Assembly: GCA_033763315.1 (NCBI GenBank)
Contig: JANRKS010000007.1
Span: 256,001 to 320,000 of the forward strand
Reading direction: 5' to 3'
Source: Deltaproteobacteria bacterium
GTDB taxonomy: Bacteria > Myxococcota_A > Polyangia > Fen-1088
DNA length: 64,000 bases
Of the stretch, positions 22,118 to 34,534 are shown in pieces. Every line of letters starts with the position of its first letter. Position 1 is the first letter of the stretch. The notes beneath the pieces were generated by a model. That model was not told where the DNA came from and ran no database searches. It saw nothing but the letters and a program-made list of their open reading frames with translations. The position numbers and the translations under genes are program-made.

Positions 22118-22308
22118 GGCGTAACTAGCCAGATCTACCCTTGTCTGCCGAAGCAAGGCCCCAATCCAGTGTAAAACCACCCGTTCGCTATAGATGCATT
22201 AGGATACGTTTTAGGTACTTTCTGGTATTGTTTGGGACGTTCGTTTATGCGCGTCCCGGTGTTGATCGCCTGCGCGCGTCCGTGAAGTTCCTAATGCGGA
22301 GGCCTTTC

Positions 22309-24045
22309 ATGCAGTGGCAGGTTTTGTTTCGAGCAGCGGCCTTGGGTGTATCCATAGGTGCAGCGGCTTGCAGCGGCAGCGTGGCCGGCAATGGCCAAGG
22401 CCAAGGTGACGACGGGTCCGAAGGTGGCTCGGGTGGTGAAATCAAACCAGGTGGCGATGGCGTGCCGGCCGCTTCGGACGGGTTAGGCCGGCTCGATGAG
22501 AGCCAAGTCAAAGAGTGCAGCCAGTCGAAGGTGCTTGATCCCGGTTCGACCGTGATCCGCCGGCTCACACGGCGCGAGTACGACAACACGATTGCCGATT
22601 TGCTTTTCGATGCGTCATCGCCGTCGAAACAGTTTCCCTCTGATGAGCGACGCTTGAGCTTCGACAACAACGCCGCGTATCTCAATGTGTCGCCCACGCA
22701 CACAGAACGTTATGACTTGGCCGCGGAAACGCTGGCTACGGCGGCGGTGCAGAAGAACTTAGCGAAGCTGGTGTCGTGCAAGCCAGCATCCGCCACAGAT
22801 GAAGTCTGCGCAAAGACGTTCATCAATGGCTTCGTGCAACGCGCCTTTCGTCGCCCCGTCGAAAAAGCAGAAGAAGACCGCTTCCTCGGCGTCTTCCGCC
22901 AGGGCGCAAAAACGGATTTCAACACGGGCGTCTCATTGGTGGTGCAAGCTGTCCTGCAGTCCGCTCCCTTTTTATACCGCGTTGAGTTTGGCGAGCCGGT
23001 GCAAGGCGACGACAAGTTCGTAAAGCTGACTTCGTGGGAGATCGCTTCGCGATTGTCTTATCTGCTGTGGGCTTCGATGCCCGACGAGGCGCTGTTCGCC
23101 GCCGCCAAAGACAACAAGCTGCAAACCCGTGCCCAAGTGTCCGAGCATGTGCAACGCATGCTCAAGGACCCGAAGGCCAAGCGGATGGTGGGCAACTTTC
23201 ACGAACAGTGGCTGGGCCTGGGTGATGTGCAGTCCATCGACCGAGATGCAAAGTTGTTTCCTGACTGGAAGAACGAGAACATCCAAATGCTTAAGCAAGA
23301 GGTAAATGAATTCACCTCTTCGCTGGTGTTCAACGACGGCAACATCAAGGAATTGTTCACCGCGCCTCACACCATGATGAACGGCGCGGTGGCGAAGCAT
23401 TATGGAGTGTCTTCGCCCACCGGCACGACCTTCGAAAAGGTGGAGGACGACAAGCGGCACGCGGGCGTCTTCACGTTGGGCGCCGTGATGGCTTCGACCG
23501 GAAAAATCAATCAAAGTTCACCCGTGTTGCGCGGCAAGTTCGTCCGGGAACATATGCTGTGCCAGTCGCTGCCGCCGCCTCCGCCTGACGTCAACGCAGA
23601 GGCCCCGTCTCTTGATCCGAAGCTCACCACCCGGGACCGCTTCGCGCAACATTCGGAAAATCCAGCGTGCGCAAACTGCCACCGTTTGTTGGATCCCGTG
23701 GGTCTCGGCATGGAAAACTTTGATGCCGTGGGCCGCTACCGCGACAAGGAAAATGGCTTGGATTTGAACGTCAACGGCAAGTTGGAAGACACGGACGTTG
23801 ATGGCACATTCAACGGCGTATTTGAACTTGCGCAGAAGCTATCGACAAGTGAAGAGGCTCAACGTTGCATGGTGACCAATTGGTTCAGGTTCGCCTACGG
23901 CCGCACTGAATCCGATTCTGATCTGTGCTTCCTGCACCAGCTTGATGCACGCCTTGTTAAGTCGTCAGGCAACCTCAGGGAATTGTTGGTGGCCACCACC
24001 GAACTGGATGCGTTCTTTTACCGCCGCGCTGGAGGTGCACAATGA
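22309..24045 (+). CDS. DUF1587/1595/1592/1588/1585-type lipoprotein with CXXCH motif
   Basis: Lipobox AAC; RRLTRREYDNTI, RAFRRP, ASRLSYLLW.SMPD, SPVLRG, CANCH and DPVGLGMENFD. GGAGG precedes the ATG at 22309. Confidence 0.85.
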   Translation: MQWQVLFRAAALGVSIGAAACSGSVAGNGQGQGDDGSEGGSGGEIKPGGDGVPAASDGLGRLDESQVKECSQSKVLDPGSTVIRRLTRREYDNTIADLLFDASSPSKQFPSDERRLSFDNNAAYLNVSPTHTERYDLAAETLATAAVQKNLAKLVSCKPASATDEVCAKTFINGFVQRAFRRPVEKAEEDRFLGVFRQGAKTDFNTGVSLVVQAVLQSAPFLYRVEFGEPVQGDDKFVKLTSWEIASRLSYLLWASMPDEALFAAAKDNKLQTRAQVSEHVQRMLKDPKAKRMVGNFHEQWLGLGDVQSIDRDAKLFPDWKNENIQMLKQEVNEFTSSLVFNDGNIKELFTAPHTMMNGAVAKHYGVSSPTGTTFEKVEDDKRHAGVFTLGAVMASTGKINQSSPVLRGKFVREHMLCQSLPPPPPDVNAEAPSLDPKLTTRDRFAQHSENPACANCHRLLDPVGLGMENFDAVGRYRDKENGLDLNVNGKLEDTDVDGTFNGVFELAQKLSTSEEAQRCMVTNWFRFAYGRTESDSDLCFLHQLDARLVKSSGNLRELLVATTELDAFFYRRAGGAQ

Positions 24046-25418
24046 AACCCTTCCGTCTCAGTCGTCGAACCGTATTGCGTGGCGCGGGTGGCGTGGCGAT
24101 CGCTTTGCCTTGGCTTGAGGCCATGGCACCCACAAAGAATGCCTACGCTGCGGGACCCAAGCGGCTCGTGGTGTTCTTCACGCCAAACGGCACGATCTAT
24201 GAGAATTGGAAACCAAAGGGCACGACCACCGATTTTACGATGTCGCCAATCCTGGCGCCGCTTGAGCCGATGAAGAACAAGCTCATCTTGCTTGAGGGCT
24301 TGTTCCAAGGCGCCAAGAATGGCAGCGGCGGATCCATCCCCGGCCCCGGTGACGATCACATGAAGGGCATGGCGTGGGCGTTGACGGGGCGACAACTGAT
24401 GCCTGGCAGCGTGGCGGGCGGTGGCGGCGCGACGCCCGCGGGCTTGTCCACGGGCTTGTCGGTGGATCAACACGTAGCCAAAACCATAGGCAAAGACACG
24501 CGCTTTTCGTCACTTGAGTTTGGTGTGCGTTCGCTGACCGTCGCCGGAAATCCCCTGTTTCATATGGTGTACGCCTCGGCCGGAGTCGCCCGACAGCCCG
24601 AGCAAAACCCCGCGCAGATGTTTGATCGCGTGTTCAAGGGATTCACCCCCGGCACCTCCACACCAGATCCAACCGTCCTCAAACGTGCGGCCGACAAAAC
24701 AAGCGTGCTTGACGCCGTCAAAGACAGCTACAGCTCGCTGTCGCCCAAGCTCGGCAAAGACGACAAGGCCAAAATCGACGCGCATTTGGCCAACATCAGC
24801 GATCTGCAGAAGCGGTTGGCCCAAGGGTCAACGACGGGCGGCGCCATGGGCGCGGGATGCAAACTTCCGACACGCCCCAAAGAGAACGATCCGTATAGCG
24901 AAGCGAACTTCGTTGAGAACGGCAAAGCGCAAGTCGATATGCTTTCGATGGCTTTGGCCTGCGACCTCACGCGCGTGGCGAGCTTGCAGTGGAGTTACTC
25001 CTCCGGGGGCCCCACGCCTTCGTGGATCCAGATCAACCGTGGCCACCACGACATCAGCCACGACGGCGACGGCATCGCCACGGCAAAGGATCAGCTCACC
25101 AAGATCGACACGTGGTATTCGCAGCAGTTTTTGTCGTTGATCCAGAAGATGGATGCCATCCCAGAGGCTGATGGCACCCTCTTGGATAACTCGATGGTCC
25201 TGTGGGTGAACGAGCTGGCCAAAGGCAACGTGCACAGCCACGGCCCCATGTGTTACGTCATCGCAGGCAAGGCGGGGGGGGCGTTGCAAACCGGCCGCTA
25301 CCTGCACGCGGAAGAAAACCACAATAACTTGCTTGTCTCGGTGATGAACAAAATGGGGGTCGAAGGGAACACATTCGGCGATCCGGCCTTCTGCACCGGG
25401 CCCCTCAAAGCCCTTTGA
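24042..25418 (+). CDS. DUF1552 family protein, Tat-exported
   Basis: LSRRTVLRGAGGVAIALPWLEAM Tat-like leader; SVDQ, ALACDLTRVA, HHDISH and GTLLDNS. ATGA overlap with the upstream gene. Confidence 0.88.
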   Translation: MKPFRLSRRTVLRGAGGVAIALPWLEAMAPTKNAYAAGPKRLVVFFTPNGTIYENWKPKGTTTDFTMSPILAPLEPMKNKLILLEGLFQGAKNGSGGSIPGPGDDHMKGMAWALTGRQLMPGSVAGGGGATPAGLSTGLSVDQHVAKTIGKDTRFSSLEFGVRSLTVAGNPLFHMVYASAGVARQPEQNPAQMFDRVFKGFTPGTSTPDPTVLKRAADKTSVLDAVKDSYSSLSPKLGKDDKAKIDAHLANISDLQKRLAQGSTTGGAMGAGCKLPTRPKENDPYSEANFVENGKAQVDMLSMALACDLTRVASLQWSYSSGGPTPSWIQINRGHHDISHDGDGIATAKDQLTKIDTWYSQQFLSLIQKMDAIPEADGTLLDNSMVLWVNELAKGNVHSHGPMCYVIAGKAGGALQTGRYLHAEENHNNLLVSVMNKMGVEGNTFGDPAFCTGPLKAL

Positions 25419-29642: not shown

Positions 29643-30275
29643 ATGAACCAGCCCGACAGCGAACGCCTGCGACGCCAACACGAGCGGCGCATGGCCTATA
29701 TGCCGTGGTTGTATTTCCAGGCCCCCCCAGCCATCGCCGCGTGGGCATTGCCCTGGCAGGCGGCGATCCACGCCGAGCTGGCCGCGTTCGAGTGCATCGA
29801 TCTGGATCCGAGCTGTTTCATCGCGCCCAACGCTCAATTGTTCGCCGAACCCAACCGCCGCATTCGCGTGAGCGCAGGCGCTGCCGTTGCCGCCGAAGCC
29901 TTCTTGCACGGCCCCGTCGTGCTTGAGGCTCACGTCAGCATCAACACGCGCGTGGTGATCGACGGCGGTCGCGCGGGCGTTCGGATCGGCGCGGGCACAC
30001 GCATCGCCACGGGCGCCACGCTGTTCGCCTTTGACCACGGCATGAGCCCACACGCCGCAATCCGAGCACAACCCAACACGTCCTTAGGAATCACGATTGG
30101 CCAAGACGTGTGGATCGGAGCGCAAGCGGGCGTCACAGATGGCGTGACGATCGGCGATCACGCGGTCGTAGGCATGGGCGCGGTGGTCACCAAGGACGTG
30201 GCCCCGTGGTCGATCGTCGCGGGGGTGCCGGCGCGCGTGATAGGTGATCGCCGCTCGCAGGCAGGGCCCCCATGA
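29643..30275 (+). CDS. Left-handed beta-helix acyltransferase (hexapeptide repeat)
   Basis: [41 protein letters not shown]. Confidence 0.9.
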
Positions 30276-31699
30276 CATGGCGCCAGCGTTACGCTTGGCT
30301 GCGTCACCTCGTGGCTGAAGCGGCGGTGCTGGACGTCCGCGCGCTGGCGCTCGGCCGCGTGGGCATGGGTGTGCTGCTGCTGTACGATCTGTTCGTCCGC
30401 GCGCACGACATTGGCGCGCTCTATAGCGACGCGGGCCTTGAGCCACGCAACGTTTTAGATCCACCTGTGCTGCCACTGTTCCGCATCTATTTCGTGGTGG
30501 GCAGTGTGGCCGCAGTGCAGGTTGTGTTTGCGATCGCCGCGGTCATCGCGTTGGCGTTGTTGCTCGGCTTTCGCACGCGCTTGGCCACAGCGGCATCATG
30601 GGTGCTGCTGGTGTCGCTGCAGGCACGCAATGGCTCGGTCAACCAAGCGGGCGACGATCTGTTGGCGATGTTCTTGTTCTGGAGCTTGTTTCTTCCTTTG
30701 GGCGCGCGCTTTTCATTCGACGCGTGGTTGCGCCCTCGCCCCGCTGACTCGAACCTCGTGCAAGGCGCAGGGCCCTTCGCTTTTGCAGGCCAACTGTTTC
30801 TGCTTTACTTCATCACCGGAACGCTCAAAGCGAATTCGATTCATTGGTTGATGGGCAACGGCATCTACGACGCCCTCCACGCCCAGGAATTCGTCACAAG
30901 CTTTGGCCGCTGGCTGCACCCACATTACTACATCTTGAAGCTGCTTTCGTGGGCCACCCTGCTGTTGGAGATTTTCGGTCCTTTGCTGCTGTTCGTGTCA
31001 CCCCGCCGCTGGCCAGTGCGGCTTGGTTTGGTGCTCGCGTTCTTAGGTTTTCATGCGGGCATTTCGTTGTGCATGCGCATCGGCATGTTTTCGTTTGTGT
31101 GCATGGTGGGCTGGCTGTTCTTGGTGCCAGCGGGTGCCTTCGATCGCGTGTTGCGGCGCATGCCCACTGAATCACCGGCTTCACGCGCGCCGCGCGCTCG
31201 TTGGGCTCAAAGGCTTGCCGCAACCATCTTCGTTTATCTGGTGCTGGCCGCCATGATCTCGGACCAATGGCCCGAAGGACCGGTGCGCAACATCTTGCTT
31301 AAGCCTGCACGCGCGTTTGCGTGGCAAGAGCACTGGGGCATGTTCGTCAAGCCGCGCGACGAGGCCGGCTTTCTGGCCGCGCGCGCCATGCTGGCCAACG
31401 GCACCCAAGTGGATCTGCTGCGCGGTGGCCAGCCGCTGACGTGGGATCCACCACCGTTGGTGATCGATCTATTTGCCAATCAACGCTGGCGCAAAATGCT
31501 GACCGGGATCATCAAGAGTGACAACAAGGATCGCGCCCATCGATATCTTCAATGGTTGTGCCGCACCGAAAACGCGCACCGCTTGGGCGATCACAAGGTG
31601 GTGAACCTCGTTCTTACCTATGTCAGTCAAAAACTGCGCGAGCCCTACGTCAAGGGCCCGCCCGAGCGCAAAGTGCTGGCGTTGTCGAAGTGCGAATAA
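30272..31699 (+). CDS. HTTM-domain membrane protein
   Basis: Motifs [29 protein letters not shown] and FHAGI; soluble C-terminal domain with WGMF. Confidence 0.8.
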
Positions 31700-31739
31700 A
31701 AGAAAGCCCCTGGGGCCGCGCGTGCGCAACCCCAAGGGC
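31697..31739 (-). terminator. Intrinsic terminator of the Cys-rich gene
   Basis: Minus strand reads GCCCTTGGGGTTGCG-CACG-CGCGGCCCCAGGGGC (15-bp stem with G-U pairs), then TTTCTTTT. Confidence 0.8.
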
Positions 31740-31759
31740 CCATCGTGAACGGGTATTAC

Positions 31760-33127
31760 CTAGCCGCCAGCCGCAGCCATGCCGCCCGCCGTACCGCTCG
31801 CGCTCACGCTTGCGGACACTGAGATCGAGACGCTCGCAGACACCTGAACGGCCGAAAGAGCGTTGGCCGCGTAAGAGGCCGCCGACGCCACGCAGGCGCC
31901 CGCTTGCACGCCCGCTTCGCCCACGCTTGTGGCCAAACCGTTGAGCGCGGTCGCGTAAGCTGAAACAGTGGAGCCCGCCACGATGGCAGCGCGTTGGCTT
32001 AGCTTCAAGATCTTGCCGTAGTGAGCCTTCAACGTGTTTACAACGGCCGTGACCTTCACCGGATCCACGATGGCGCTGGCGGCGATTTCCACCGACAACT
32101 CCGGCTCGGTGCACATAGCCTCGCAGCTGGCCTTCGCGTTACACGTGGTCTCACAGGTCTTCTCTTCACGCATCACCTGGACCTCTTCACACACAGGCGG
32201 CATCACACCGCCCGCAGTGCAGCTGCCACGACAGCCACCAGTGCACGTGGCGGAACAGCCACCTTTACATGTGCCCGAGCAACCACCGCGGCATGTGCCC
32301 GAACACGCGCCTTTCACGTTTGTGCGGCATGTGCCGTTGCACACGCCCGTGGCGGTCAAAGCGCCTTCACATTCGCCCGCACAGGTGCCATCGGCGGCCG
32401 GAGCAACTGAACATGTGCCATTGCATTTGCCCGCGGCATCGAGCGCCACGTAACATTTGCCTTCGCATTTCGCGCTGGTCACCACGTCGCAGCTGCCACT
32501 GCATTCGGCCGAACATGAACCCGTGCAGCCAAGCTGGCACGAGCCTTCGCAGGAGCCACCACACGTACCTTCGCAGGTGGGGTAGTAGATCTTGCCAGGC
32601 TTACACATCAGTTGGGTTTCAGTCACCGTCATCGTTTCACACGTCTGCAAACACGACAGACGAGCCGACGCACTCACCGTGCAAACCGCAGGCTTGTAAA
32701 CAACGTTCAGATACGCGTTCAGCTTCAAGTTGGCGCGCAAGGTTGTGTCGATCTGCTGAGCCACGCGCTCGCAAGCCGCTTTCGTTCTTGCACCCGGGGC
32801 CAACATTTGGCCGGGGGGTGGGGCCGCAGGTTCAAGCTGTGCGGCGGGAATCCCGAGCTCGGTCGCCATCGCGGTGCACTCGGCCAACATCCCCGTATCG
32901 ATCTCGGTCGACGCTTTTACGAATGCCGTCGTGGCATCCAACACAGTGTTCACACGTTTGCCCACTGCCGTCAGACCATAATCCGAACGCTTACCCGTCA
33001 CGGGGTCATACACGGCGCCCGAACACAACACATTGCTGCCATCTTCATTGCAACCCGCCACGCCAAAACTCAAGCCCACGGCCACTGCCGCCAAGGCCAC
33101 ATAACTTGATAGGTATCGATGCATCAT
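31760..33127 (-). CDS. Cys-rich myxobacterial lipoprotein (CxGxC repeats)
   Basis: Lipobox VAGC; 38 Cys by my count, helical flanks and a C-terminal VSASVSISVSASVS strand. Confidence 0.85.
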   Translation of the reverse strand: MMHRYLSSYVALAAVAVGLSFGVAGCNEDGSNVLCSGAVYDPVTGKRSDYGLTAVGKRVNTVLDATTAFVKASTEIDTGMLAECTAMATELGIPAAQLEPAAPPPGQMLAPGARTKAACERVAQQIDTTLRANLKLNAYLNVVYKPAVCTVSASARLSCLQTCETMTVTETQLMCKPGKIYYPTCEGTCGGSCEGSCQLGCTGSCSAECSGSCDVVTSAKCEGKCYVALDAAGKCNGTCSVAPAADGTCAGECEGALTATGVCNGTCRTNVKGACSGTCRGGCSGTCKGGCSATCTGGCRGSCTAGGVMPPVCEEVQVMREEKTCETTCNAKASCEAMCTEPELSVEIAASAIVDPVKVTAVVNTLKAHYGKILKLSQRAAIVAGSTVSAYATALNGLATSVGEAGVQAGACVASAASYAANALSAVQVSASVSISVSASVSASGTAGGMAAAGG

Positions 33128-33475: not shown

Positions 33476-34534
33476 ATGTCCGATTGTTTTACATTGATAC
33501 TCGCCGGCGGTGGTGGAACCCGTTTGTGGCCTGTGAGCCGCCGGGCGCGGCCCAAGCAATTGCTGGCTCTGGGGGGCGACGAAACGCTGTTGGCAGCAAC
33601 CTTTCGCCGTTCATGCGATTTGGTCGGCGTGCAAAATTCGCTGATCGTTACAGCTAGTGATCAAGCGGAAGCGATCGCGCACGCGATTCCCAATCTGCCG
33701 CCGGAAAACCTCATTGTTGAACCCGCGGCACGCAATACCGCCCCCGCGGTGGCCTTAGGCGCGGCGGCGGTCGCCCGGCGCGCGGGCAACAAAGCGCGCG
33801 TGGCCGTGCTGCCCTCGGATGCGTTCATCGGCGATGAGCCCGGCTTTTTGCGCTGCGCGCGCACGGCCCTCGATCAAGCCTCTCACGCCATCGTCACGAT
33901 CGGCCTTCACCCGCTGTCGCCTGAAACTGGCTATGGATACATTCGCCCCGCCACTGCCCTCACCGCCGACGTCTTCGAGGTGGGAGCGTTCGTTGAGAAG
34001 CCAGACGCCGAAACAGCCGTTCGCTACGTCAGGGAAGGCTTTTTGTGGAACGCGGGCATGTTCTTCATGTCTGTGGAAACGCTGTTCGCGCAGGCACACC
34101 AACACTTGCCGCTGCTGGGACAGGTTATAGATGCGTTGCTCAACGGGCCGGACTTCCACGCGGCGGCAGAGCAGCACTACAAACAAGCCCCTGCGATTTC
34201 GATCGATTTCGGCATCATGGAAAAGGCAAAAGGGTTACGTGTGGTCGCAGGCAGCTTCGCGTGGAACGACGTGGGCAGCTGGTCGGCCATGCCGGCCGTG
34301 CGCGCGCCCAACGCCGAAGGAAACGTGGTGGTGGGCGCCGCCGTGGCCGTCAACGCGCGGAACAACATCGTTTTCTCCGACGCAGGCGCGCCACTCATCG
34401 CCGTGACTGACGTCGACGATCTTGTGATCGTCGCAACGGCTGACGCCATCCTGGTCACCCGACGGGATAAATCGCAAAACGTGCGAAGTGTGGTGGACGC
34501 CCTGGGGAAACAGGGCCGCGGCGACTTGCTCTAG
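33476..34534 (+). CDS. manC: Mannose-1-phosphate guanylyltransferase
   Basis: Motifs LAGGGGTRLWP.SR..PKQ, EP.ARNTAPA, PETGYGYI, FVEKP, WNAGMF and WNDVGSW. Confidence 0.93.
   Translation: MSDCFTLILAGGGGTRLWPVSRRARPKQLLALGGDETLLAATFRRSCDLVGVQNSLIVTASDQAEAIAHAIPNLPPENLIVEPAARNTAPAVALGAAAVARRAGNKARVAVLPSDAFIGDEPGFLRCARTALDQASHAIVTIGLHPLSPETGYGYIRPATALTADVFEVGAFVEKPDAETAVRYVREGFLWNAGMFFMSVETLFAQAHQHLPLLGQVIDALLNGPDFHAAAEQHYKQAPAISIDFGIMEKAKGLRVVAGSFAWNDVGSWSAMPAVRAPNAEGNVVVGAAVAVNARNNIVFSDAGAPLIAVTDVDDLVIVATADAILVTRRDKSQNVRSVVDALGKQGRGDLL

Follow-up and report, generated by a model that had tools for sequence, protein, structure and literature searches.

The gene described here lies in a window of 64,000 nucleotides (nt), the whole stretch of DNA that was analyzed, which covers positions 256,001 to 320,000 of contig JANRKS010000007.1 (assembly GCA_033763315.1, Deltaproteobacteria bacterium; Myxococcota_A, Polyangia). 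It encodes a protein of 455 amino acids (aa) in which a dense middle region of cysteines (Cys), hereafter the ladder, is arranged symmetrically around one center, with predicted helical segments on either side. This was the only locus of the family found in its own genome. The gene appears to be monocistronic, and it is flanked by a convergent gene for an HTTM protein (30272-31699, +) and a divergent nucleotidyl transferase gene (33476-34534, +). The protein carries the hallmark of a lipoprotein, MMHRYLSSYVALAAVAVGLSFGVAG-C26, i.e., a signal peptide ending in a lipobox, which was assigned by eye and with a regular expression, and the leader of the 455-aa protein has no twin-arginine motif. C26 was invariant in the 79 homologues that were aligned, in support of the lipid anchor that the original prediction, made by reading the letters of this stretch, had assumed. 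Using the regular expression, a lipobox-like motif was also found in 137 of 229 full-length homologues (340 to 520 aa, with at least 18 Cys in the dense region). The features of the locus are given in Table 1.

Table 1. Features of the ladder gene, with positions in the window and residue numbers of the 455-aa product.
Feature	Positions	Strand	Basis or remark
Whole gene, one open reading frame (ORF), 455 aa and stop	31760..33127	-	ORF listing
Signal peptide with lipobox, aa 1-26, ending GVAGC26	33050..33127	-	Sequence; Cys26 predicted to be lipid-modified
N-terminal half of helical base, predicted helices aa 54-90 and 113-133, with conserved C84 and C119	32729..32968	-	AlphaFold2, blocks with confidence (pLDDT) 87-98
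Whole putative hairpin, aa 139-349, including base strands 139-145/343-349 flanking the outermost Cys pair	32081..32713	-	AlphaFold2 boundaries
Left (ascending) arm, C149 to C239, 16 Cys	32411..32683	-	C159xxxC163 in a predicted helix, then CxGxC units predicted as strands
Turn at the tip, aa 240-248, SVAPAADGT	32384..32410	-	Between the arms
Right (descending) arm, C249 to C339, 16 mirrored Cys and the extra C335	32111..32383	-	Cys positions
C335 codon, unpaired Cys	32123..32125	-	Divides the last 10-residue gap into 6+4
C-terminal half of helical base, predicted helices aa 356-399 and 402-432, with invariant C412	31832..32062	-	AlphaFold2; alignment
C-terminal Ser/Val/Ala-rich tail, aa 433-455	31763..31831	-	Family consensus VSVxVSVSVSASxSASG; pLDDT <50 for aa 438-453
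Terminator-like hairpin, 17-bp stem followed by a T-run	31704..31741	-	Directly after the stop codon

The original prediction held that 16 pairs of Cys are mirrored around one center. When the positions were recomputed from the sequence, the product was found to contain 38 Cys, and all 16 pairs (149/339 to 239/249) were present, each with positions summing to 488, while the second-best mirror sum accounted for 11 pairs only. The interval 32111-32683 assigned to the ladder runs exactly from the codon of C339 to that of C149. It holds 33 Cys in 191 residues (aa 149-339), among which C335 is, as claimed, the sole Cys without a mirror partner; C26, C35, C84, C119, and C412 lie outside the ladder. 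The gaps between consecutive Cys read 10 4 12 10 4x7 8 4 10 4 10 4 10 4 8 4x7 10 12 4 (6 4). Among the homologues compared, P0001-P0005, P0009, L094, and the second module of P0279 were the only ones with an extra Cys like C335.

A chance origin of the mirror was rejected by gap shuffling, since the palindromic core of 29 gaps has only 12012 palindromes among 7.57e9 orderings (p = 1.6e-6). Identical residues were found at 21 of 92 mirrored non-Cys positions, mostly G, S, or T, and Tandem Repeats Finder detected no tandem repeat in the DNA, where the only inverted repeats were 12 to 23 nt long and unrelated to the mirror. Hence, an origin of the mirror from a DNA repeat was also rejected, and the earlier observation that neither the intervening residues nor the DNA are palindromic was borne out. 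An inverted DNA repeat could in any case not place Cys opposite Cys, since a Cys codon, when reverse-complemented, reads as Ala or Thr.

We then compared the ladder across the family, for which 717 homologues were found at E<=1e-3 among 8000 candidates scored. The gap list was a perfect palindrome over the whole Cys-dense region in 150 of the 229 full-length homologues, and 23 more had only one or two unmatched terminal gaps. With isolated flanking Cys trimmed (end gaps >16), 182 of 238 homologues were perfect palindromes, four had more than two one-residue differences, three differed by 2 to 3 residues, and 16 were classed as other. Six of these 16 belong to the query's own clade and are perfect save for the extra C335, and most of the remaining ones lack one Cys in one arm with the length of the arm kept (e.g., a gap of 8 opposite 4+4). 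Among the species-representative loci, 27 of 30 (L002-L031) were perfect, as were 48 of the 80 named loci L068-L147, where 22 others had a single one-residue difference and two were fragments.

The symmetry was kept over a wide range of ladder lengths. Among the perfect members, we counted 45 different full patterns and 37 different arm patterns, with 9 to 18 mirrored Cys pairs (rungs), arms of 50 to 96 residues, and a central gap of 8 to 18 residues; this gap was 9 residues in 132 of the 150 perfect palindromes, and G, A, D, and S were abundant in it. The full set of 264 proteins yielded 124 distinct longest-palindrome cores. Most members have 13 to 20 rungs, with extremes of two in P0259 (300 aa, pattern 14 25 14), five in P0216, and 20 in P0098 (446 aa), and the base was complete in P0259 and P0216 despite their very short ladders. 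With arms defined by the Cys-count midpoint only, the two arms were equal in 161 of 208 proteins and within one residue in 189 of 208 (r = 0.93), over an arm range of 14 to 148 aa whose largest values include 11 mis-centered cases. Symmetric gaps of 8 (i.e., 4+4) occurred 186 times in the arms of perfect members, which shows that rungs are lost in pairs. Furthermore, the one-residue mismatches that did occur (8/9, 10/11, and 11/12) were conserved within subfamilies, as expected for bulges.

The original prediction had proposed that homologues should gain or lose units equally in both arms, and this is what the 182 perfect members of the 238 and the 37 arm patterns showed. Asymmetric insertions and deletions, which had been named as the opposite outcome, were limited to one-residue bulges, single unpaired Cys, and one protein (P0134) with a larger difference. 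Because changes in spacing and rung number are matched between the arms, the pattern points to an antiparallel pairing of the two arms, and the spacing of the Cys makes it very probable that they pair one-to-one in this manner.

By itself, the mirror fits an intramolecular hairpin and an antiparallel pairing of two chains alike. In the latter case, the left arm of one molecule would run in antiparallel fashion along the right arm of a second one, and a domain-swapped dimer or an open-ended, disulfide-linked polymer or fiber would result. The palindromic spacing would serve equally well for this, the polar, Gly-rich arms without a core could stack, and the conserved VSVSVS tail could join in the assembly. 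However, in four two-module proteins, seven of the eight modules were palindromic about their own center, with patterns that differed between the two modules. This own-center symmetry suggests pairing within the module and excludes a whole-chain antiparallel pairing in those proteins. Together with the short central gap, rich in turn formers, and an AlphaFold2 model in which the N- and C-terminal helices of one chain form a bundle, the module symmetry led us to favor the intrachain hairpin, and we regard pairing between chains as improbable.

The nature of the link was left open between disulfides and Cys4 metal sites in the original prediction. If Cys4 sites were each assembled from a pair of neighboring rungs, every run of 4-spaced Cys would have to be even; yet none of the 37 arm patterns had only even runs, 140 of 206 runs were odd, and 91 were single rungs, which does not fit an all-Cys4 scheme. 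One-to-one pairing fits all run lengths, and the disulfide is, judged from these patterns and from the paired loss of Cys, the likeliest link. The Sec/lipobox leader without a twin-arginine motif indicates export to an oxidizing compartment, which fits disulfides, and the Cys count after the lipobox Cys was even in 101 of 137 homologues. Eight DSBA-family matches were found in the own genome. One frame of this genome outside the window (C34:158992-161361, -), of 875 aa, consists in part of four tandem DSBA (PF01323) domains, scoring 85 to 95 bits each.

We also weighed whether the mirrored Cys of the same hairpin might instead bind Zn, Cu, Cd, or Fe-S, making the protein a metal store, a sensor, or a chain of redox centers. 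The DnaJ/Hsp40 zinc finger, a cytoplasmic module with CxxCxGxG motifs and two Zn(Cys)4 sites, is a fair analogy in topology: the Cys motifs from the two halves of its hairpin, one outgoing and one returning, combine outer with outer and inner with inner, as they would in the ladder. The ladder has CxxxC rather than CxxC, its odd runs exclude a pure Cys4 scheme, and the DnaJ central Cys-rich domain gave no Pfam match in the protein. The very high density of Cys would also suit a metal protein, as would the result that searches of the own genome (90.85% complete) detected no DsbB and no VKOR, and reduced small Tim proteins with twin CX3C motifs bind Zn 1:1 (PMC3759932). On the other hand, the leader makes a cofactor assembled in the cytoplasm unlikely, His was outside the eight commonest residues at every unit position, and no metal-binding family was matched in Pfam or NCBIfam. 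Metal binding as the role of the ladder is thus unlikely, with a small residual probability left for mixed or metal-bound states, and the disulfide-linked hairpin is retained here.

To the structure of the protein, a full-length AlphaFold2 run on the alignment of 79 sequences contributed a model with a mean predicted local distance difference test (pLDDT) score of 78 and a predicted template modeling (pTM) score of 0.59. The four helices listed in Table 1 were predicted at high confidence, in line with the helical base that had been postulated, and strands were predicted in the Cys region. The boundaries of the predicted elements were themselves mirrored around 488, with strands E139-145/E343-349, helices H153-162/H324-335, and strands E167-176/E312-321. 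In a run on the core only (aa 136-352), the tip had the highest pLDDT (85-88). In the 4-spaced units of both arms, the middle residue was G in 81% and A in 16%, and the outer two were S, T, E, D, or K. Such units would place Cys and Gly on one face of a strand and polar residues on the other, which would leave room for cross-strand disulfides and none for a hydrophobic core.

The searches with structure and profile brought no template for the ladder. A search of PDB sequences with the family profile gave nothing at E<=1, Foldseek against PDB gave nothing at E<=0.001 (best FlgL, E 0.1), and VIA-align wide returned generic helix bundles over the base only, such as a spectrin repeat with a Z of 8.5, which is below the trust level for helical proteins. 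A further reading accepts the pairs as real and has the hairpin fold up into a compact β-sandwich or knot-like domain, globular and not a stalk, with the gaps of 8 to 13 residues as corners. Irregular gaps (8, 9, 10, 12, and 13) do interrupt the 4-residue rhythm at conserved places, the odd ones (9 and 13) would flip the face of the strand, and AlphaFold2 splits the arms into several short strands. Nevertheless, the units offer no hydrophobic position for a core (x1 and x3 being S/T/E/D/K and x2 being G or A), and 2 to 20 rungs on the same base are easier to reconcile with an open-ended rod than with a closed fold. The structure searches matched no compact Cys-rich fold either, a point of little weight. 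We consider a globular domain to be about as improbable as the pairing of two chains, and in the following we develop the extended hairpin.

According to our model, the protein would be a Sec-exported lipoprotein whose N- and C-terminal halves jointly make up the base, a bundle of helices, while the middle 190 to 200 residues (aa 139-349) would double back into a single long antiparallel hairpin. In this hairpin, residue i of the ascending arm would face residue 488-i of the descending arm, so that each of the 16 Cys pairs would supply one cross-link, most probably a disulfide. Two short helices close to the base would be joined by such links, C159x3C163 with C325x3C329, in the manner of a twin-CX3C lock. 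Further out, the C-x-G-x units would form a two-stranded β-ribbon with Cys and Gly on one face and Ser, Thr, and acidic residues on the other, similar to gomesin and with 13 to 20 rungs in place of 2. The outcome would be a thin, covalently stapled stalk, the length of which is set by the number of arm residues and rungs, and which may reach about 20 to 30 nm in a fully extended state. With some 0.33 nm for each residue, the 64 residues from C175 to C239 of the query would span about 21 nm, and the arms of 50 to 96 residues in the family 16 to 32 nm. For the statement as a whole, i.e., an intrachain hairpin, linked by disulfides and with a stalk-like shape, we estimate a probability of about 0.6.

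Several findings weigh against this proposal. The symmetry is not absolute: 33 of the 238 trimmed homologues had a one-residue difference at one or two mirrored sites, a whole subfamily holds the 8/9 or 10/11 mismatch near the tip, the arms of P0134 differ by 8 residues (the only such case), and the query itself holds one spare Cys, C335. There were also 19 large arm differences in the midpoint comparison, 11 of which were due to mis-centering by an extra N-terminal Cys. Mutual information at mirrored non-Cys residues was only modestly raised (0.61 compared to 0.48 and 0.40 for a shift of 4), and the charges of these residues did not complement each other; residue covariation was not used as main evidence. 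The Cys count after the lipobox Cys was odd in 36 of the 137 homologues, and the missing DsbB and VKOR and the ambiguity of the mirror between one chain and two, both described above, belong here as well. Confidence in the arms was low in the AlphaFold2 models, with ten-residue block means of 47 to 79 over most of aa 181-310 in the full-length run and a pLDDT of 58.8 in the core-only run, where both arms were below 50. Finally, a two-stranded ribbon without a hydrophobic core would be unusual at such a protein size.

Mirroring of Cys about a turn is the trait of concentric hairpins, and it was found here both in the query (16 pairs at 488) and in the family (182 of 238). Antimicrobial peptides of the gomesin, tachyplesin, and polyphemusin type consist of one antiparallel β-hairpin with concentric disulfides and rungs 4 residues apart. 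For gomesin, the disulfides are C2-C15 and C6-C11, with a constant sum of positions (PMC6099743), which is the local geometry we propose for the C-x-G-x-C units. Such natural single-hairpin peptides have 17 to 25 residues and 1 to 4 disulfides and are cationic and secreted (PMC13001179). In contrast, the ladder family has mostly 13 to 20 rungs and arms of 50 to 96 residues that are polar or acidic and part of a 400-aa lipoprotein, and there is no sequence relationship between the two. θ-Defensins, which are 18-residue, backbone-cyclized primate peptides, have three rungs at a spacing of 2, compared to the long ladder here. Their "cyclic cystine ladder" is reported to consist of parallel cross-strand disulfides that form the core of a two-stranded sheet lacking a hydrophobic core (PMC13001179, PMC6099743).

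The base of the ladder, C159x3C163/C325x3C329 with the AlphaFold2 helices 153-162 and 324-335, resembles the twin CX3C of the small Tim proteins, which have two rungs only and are eukaryotic intermembrane-space chaperones of about 10 kDa. Plant α-hairpinins share the twin-CX3C helix hairpin. In small Tims, this is a helix-loop-helix hairpin with the disulfides C1-C4 and C2-C3 (PMC3759932). Homology to Tim9/Tim10 was not detected: Pfam gave no family at E<=1, and the profile of the ladder family matched no PDB sequence at the same threshold. Thin, rigid rods of adjustable length, anchored to lipid or to the cell wall, are known from Braun's lipoprotein Lpp, the single-layer β rods of staphylococcal SasG/Aap, and the Cys-rich stalk of myxobacterial TraA. 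These have different folds (coiled coil or three-stranded single-layer sheet), and they resemble the ladder in a possible mode of action only. TIGR02232, which we take to be the Myxococcus cysteine-rich repeat as in TraA, gave no match in the NCBIfam scan of the ladder protein (E<=1).

Scans of the whole protein returned no Pfam or NCBIfam family at E<=1, nothing from PADLOC, and one weak, unnamed match from PHROGs (E 0.0039), and the ESM Atlas gave only the protein's own family for the whole protein and no usable match for the C-terminal part. A family label was present in precomputed annotations: PF27846 (tSAM_targ_Cxxx_rpt) is assigned to the query and to 119 of the 120 homologues that were listed, and some homologues are named "modification target Cys-rich repeat protein" in their JGI records. 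According to this label, the protein would be a Cxxx-repeat substrate of a radical S-adenosylmethionine (SAM)/SPASM maturase (TIGR04114/04115/04116), which would convert its Cys to thioether or other cross-links. PF27846 corresponds to TIGRFAM TIGR04114, a repeat model of 18 positions, so the label mirrors repeat composition only; like the ladder family, its targets have runs of Cys at every fourth residue, but its definition is without mirror symmetry, while the ladder family consists of lipoproteins of about 400 aa with a helical base.

The maturase TIGR04115 had no match in the own genome, and in five other carrier genomes all were below the cut-off (5/5), with generic radical-SAM matches only, all far from the homologues. 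No match was found in the own genome for TIGR04114 or TIGR04116 (CXXX_rpt_assoc), for which the controls matched nowhere, and no neighbor family was shared by more than 3 of 21 homologue neighborhoods. The "radical-SAM target Cxxx repeat" label does not hold, as no maturase was found, and we consider this modification to be very improbable as an explanation of the ladder; the analysis corrects a misleading automatic annotation, "radical-SAM modification target", on hundreds of proteins. The original prediction had stated that no description of such an architecture was known. The family is not wholly without a label, since it carries PF27846, but this label is silent on the mirrored layout, and the partner genes that define it were not found. 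A search of the literature found no paper on PF27846, on CXXX repeats in connection with radical SAM, or on CX3C-type repeats, and no description of a multi-rung mirrored ladder or of the family.

On the cell envelope, a stalk of this kind might serve as a tether or as a rigid spacer. This suggestion is tentative and stems from the anatomy of the protein, i.e., a lipid anchor, a constant base, an arm of variable length, and a variable tip. In terms of principle, the ladder is a known one, the concentric disulfide hairpin, in a new context and at about five times larger scale. That it amounts to a new architecture, a core-less hairpin tens of nm long with up to 20 concentric disulfides and arms lengthened in step, serving as an envelope spacer or tether in Polyangia-type myxobacteria, is conceivable, and we hold it to be clearly less probable than the hairpin itself. 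If the proposed structure is right, a principle known only from peptides with 2 to 4 rungs and from twin-CX3C proteins would be extended to 13 to 20 rungs and maybe 20 to 30 nm, and a natural protein rod would be stabilized by covalent staples instead of a packed core. The compensated insertions and deletions in the arms are an exceptionally clear example of covariation driven by structure, visible in the spacing of the Cys itself. Variation of length by rungs would be of interest for the engineering of rigid spacers as well as for studies of the myxobacterial envelope. Two cultured strains, Enhygromyxa salina SWB005 and Paraliomyxa miuraensis SMH-27-4, carry homologues, which makes experiments feasible.

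Nearly all members of the family come from a single class of Myxococcota, which is of the Polyangia type. When 401 genomes of the phylum were sampled, 56 had a match at E<=1e-10, namely the own genome, another 53 from its class, and 2 from other classes. An exhaustive search of representatives returned 386 clusters with E<=1e-3, of which 169 reached E<=1e-10. The carriers appear to belong to Polyangiaceae, Sandaracinaceae, Kofleriaceae, Haliangiales, and Nannocystaceae. Many genomes had 2 to 6 matches, some in tandem. A search for longer forms gave only three tandem two-module proteins and no fusion to other domains. Tandem paralogue pairs were seen in a subfamily with the gap pattern "10 4 6 9 9" at G310:C27:62544-65243 (L063), G215:C4:269081-271836 (L057), and G370:C1:8374173-8376800 (L066), all of which have in common an asymmetry of one residue close to the tip (8/9 or 10/11).

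The surroundings of the gene were not conserved: no gene family was common to more than 3 of the 21 homologue neighborhoods. The HTTM-domain membrane protein next to the query (PF05090, E 4e-14) was not conserved beside homologues elsewhere. The only recurrent close neighbor was a small ORF of about 105 to 110 aa directly upstream of the homologue in 3 of the 21 neighborhoods (L043:7571-7891, L045:7080-7418, and L046:7517-7843, +). At the end of the ladder protein, the conserved tail of alternating Val and Ser has the pattern of an amphipathic strand. Elsewhere in the window (22141-25418, +), there is a gene pair of the DUF1592/1588/1587/1595/1585 (PSD/PSCyt) and DUF1552 (HXXSHH) types, a pairing typical of Planctomycetes-like genomes.

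Two other Cys-rich frames were noted near homologues. One of them, a very large ORF beside a homologue (ORF at L036:88-4896, +; G285:C140), has 244 Cys in a regular direct repeat with gaps of about 11 3 4 9 5 5 7 8; this repeat is periodic and not mirrored, and its architecture differs from that of the ladder. The other, an ORF at L044:4033-4782 (+; G210:C1) a few kb from a homologue, has 15 consecutive Cys gaps of exactly 6 residues, a spacing that recalls the disulfide-bisected β-helix of antifreeze proteins.

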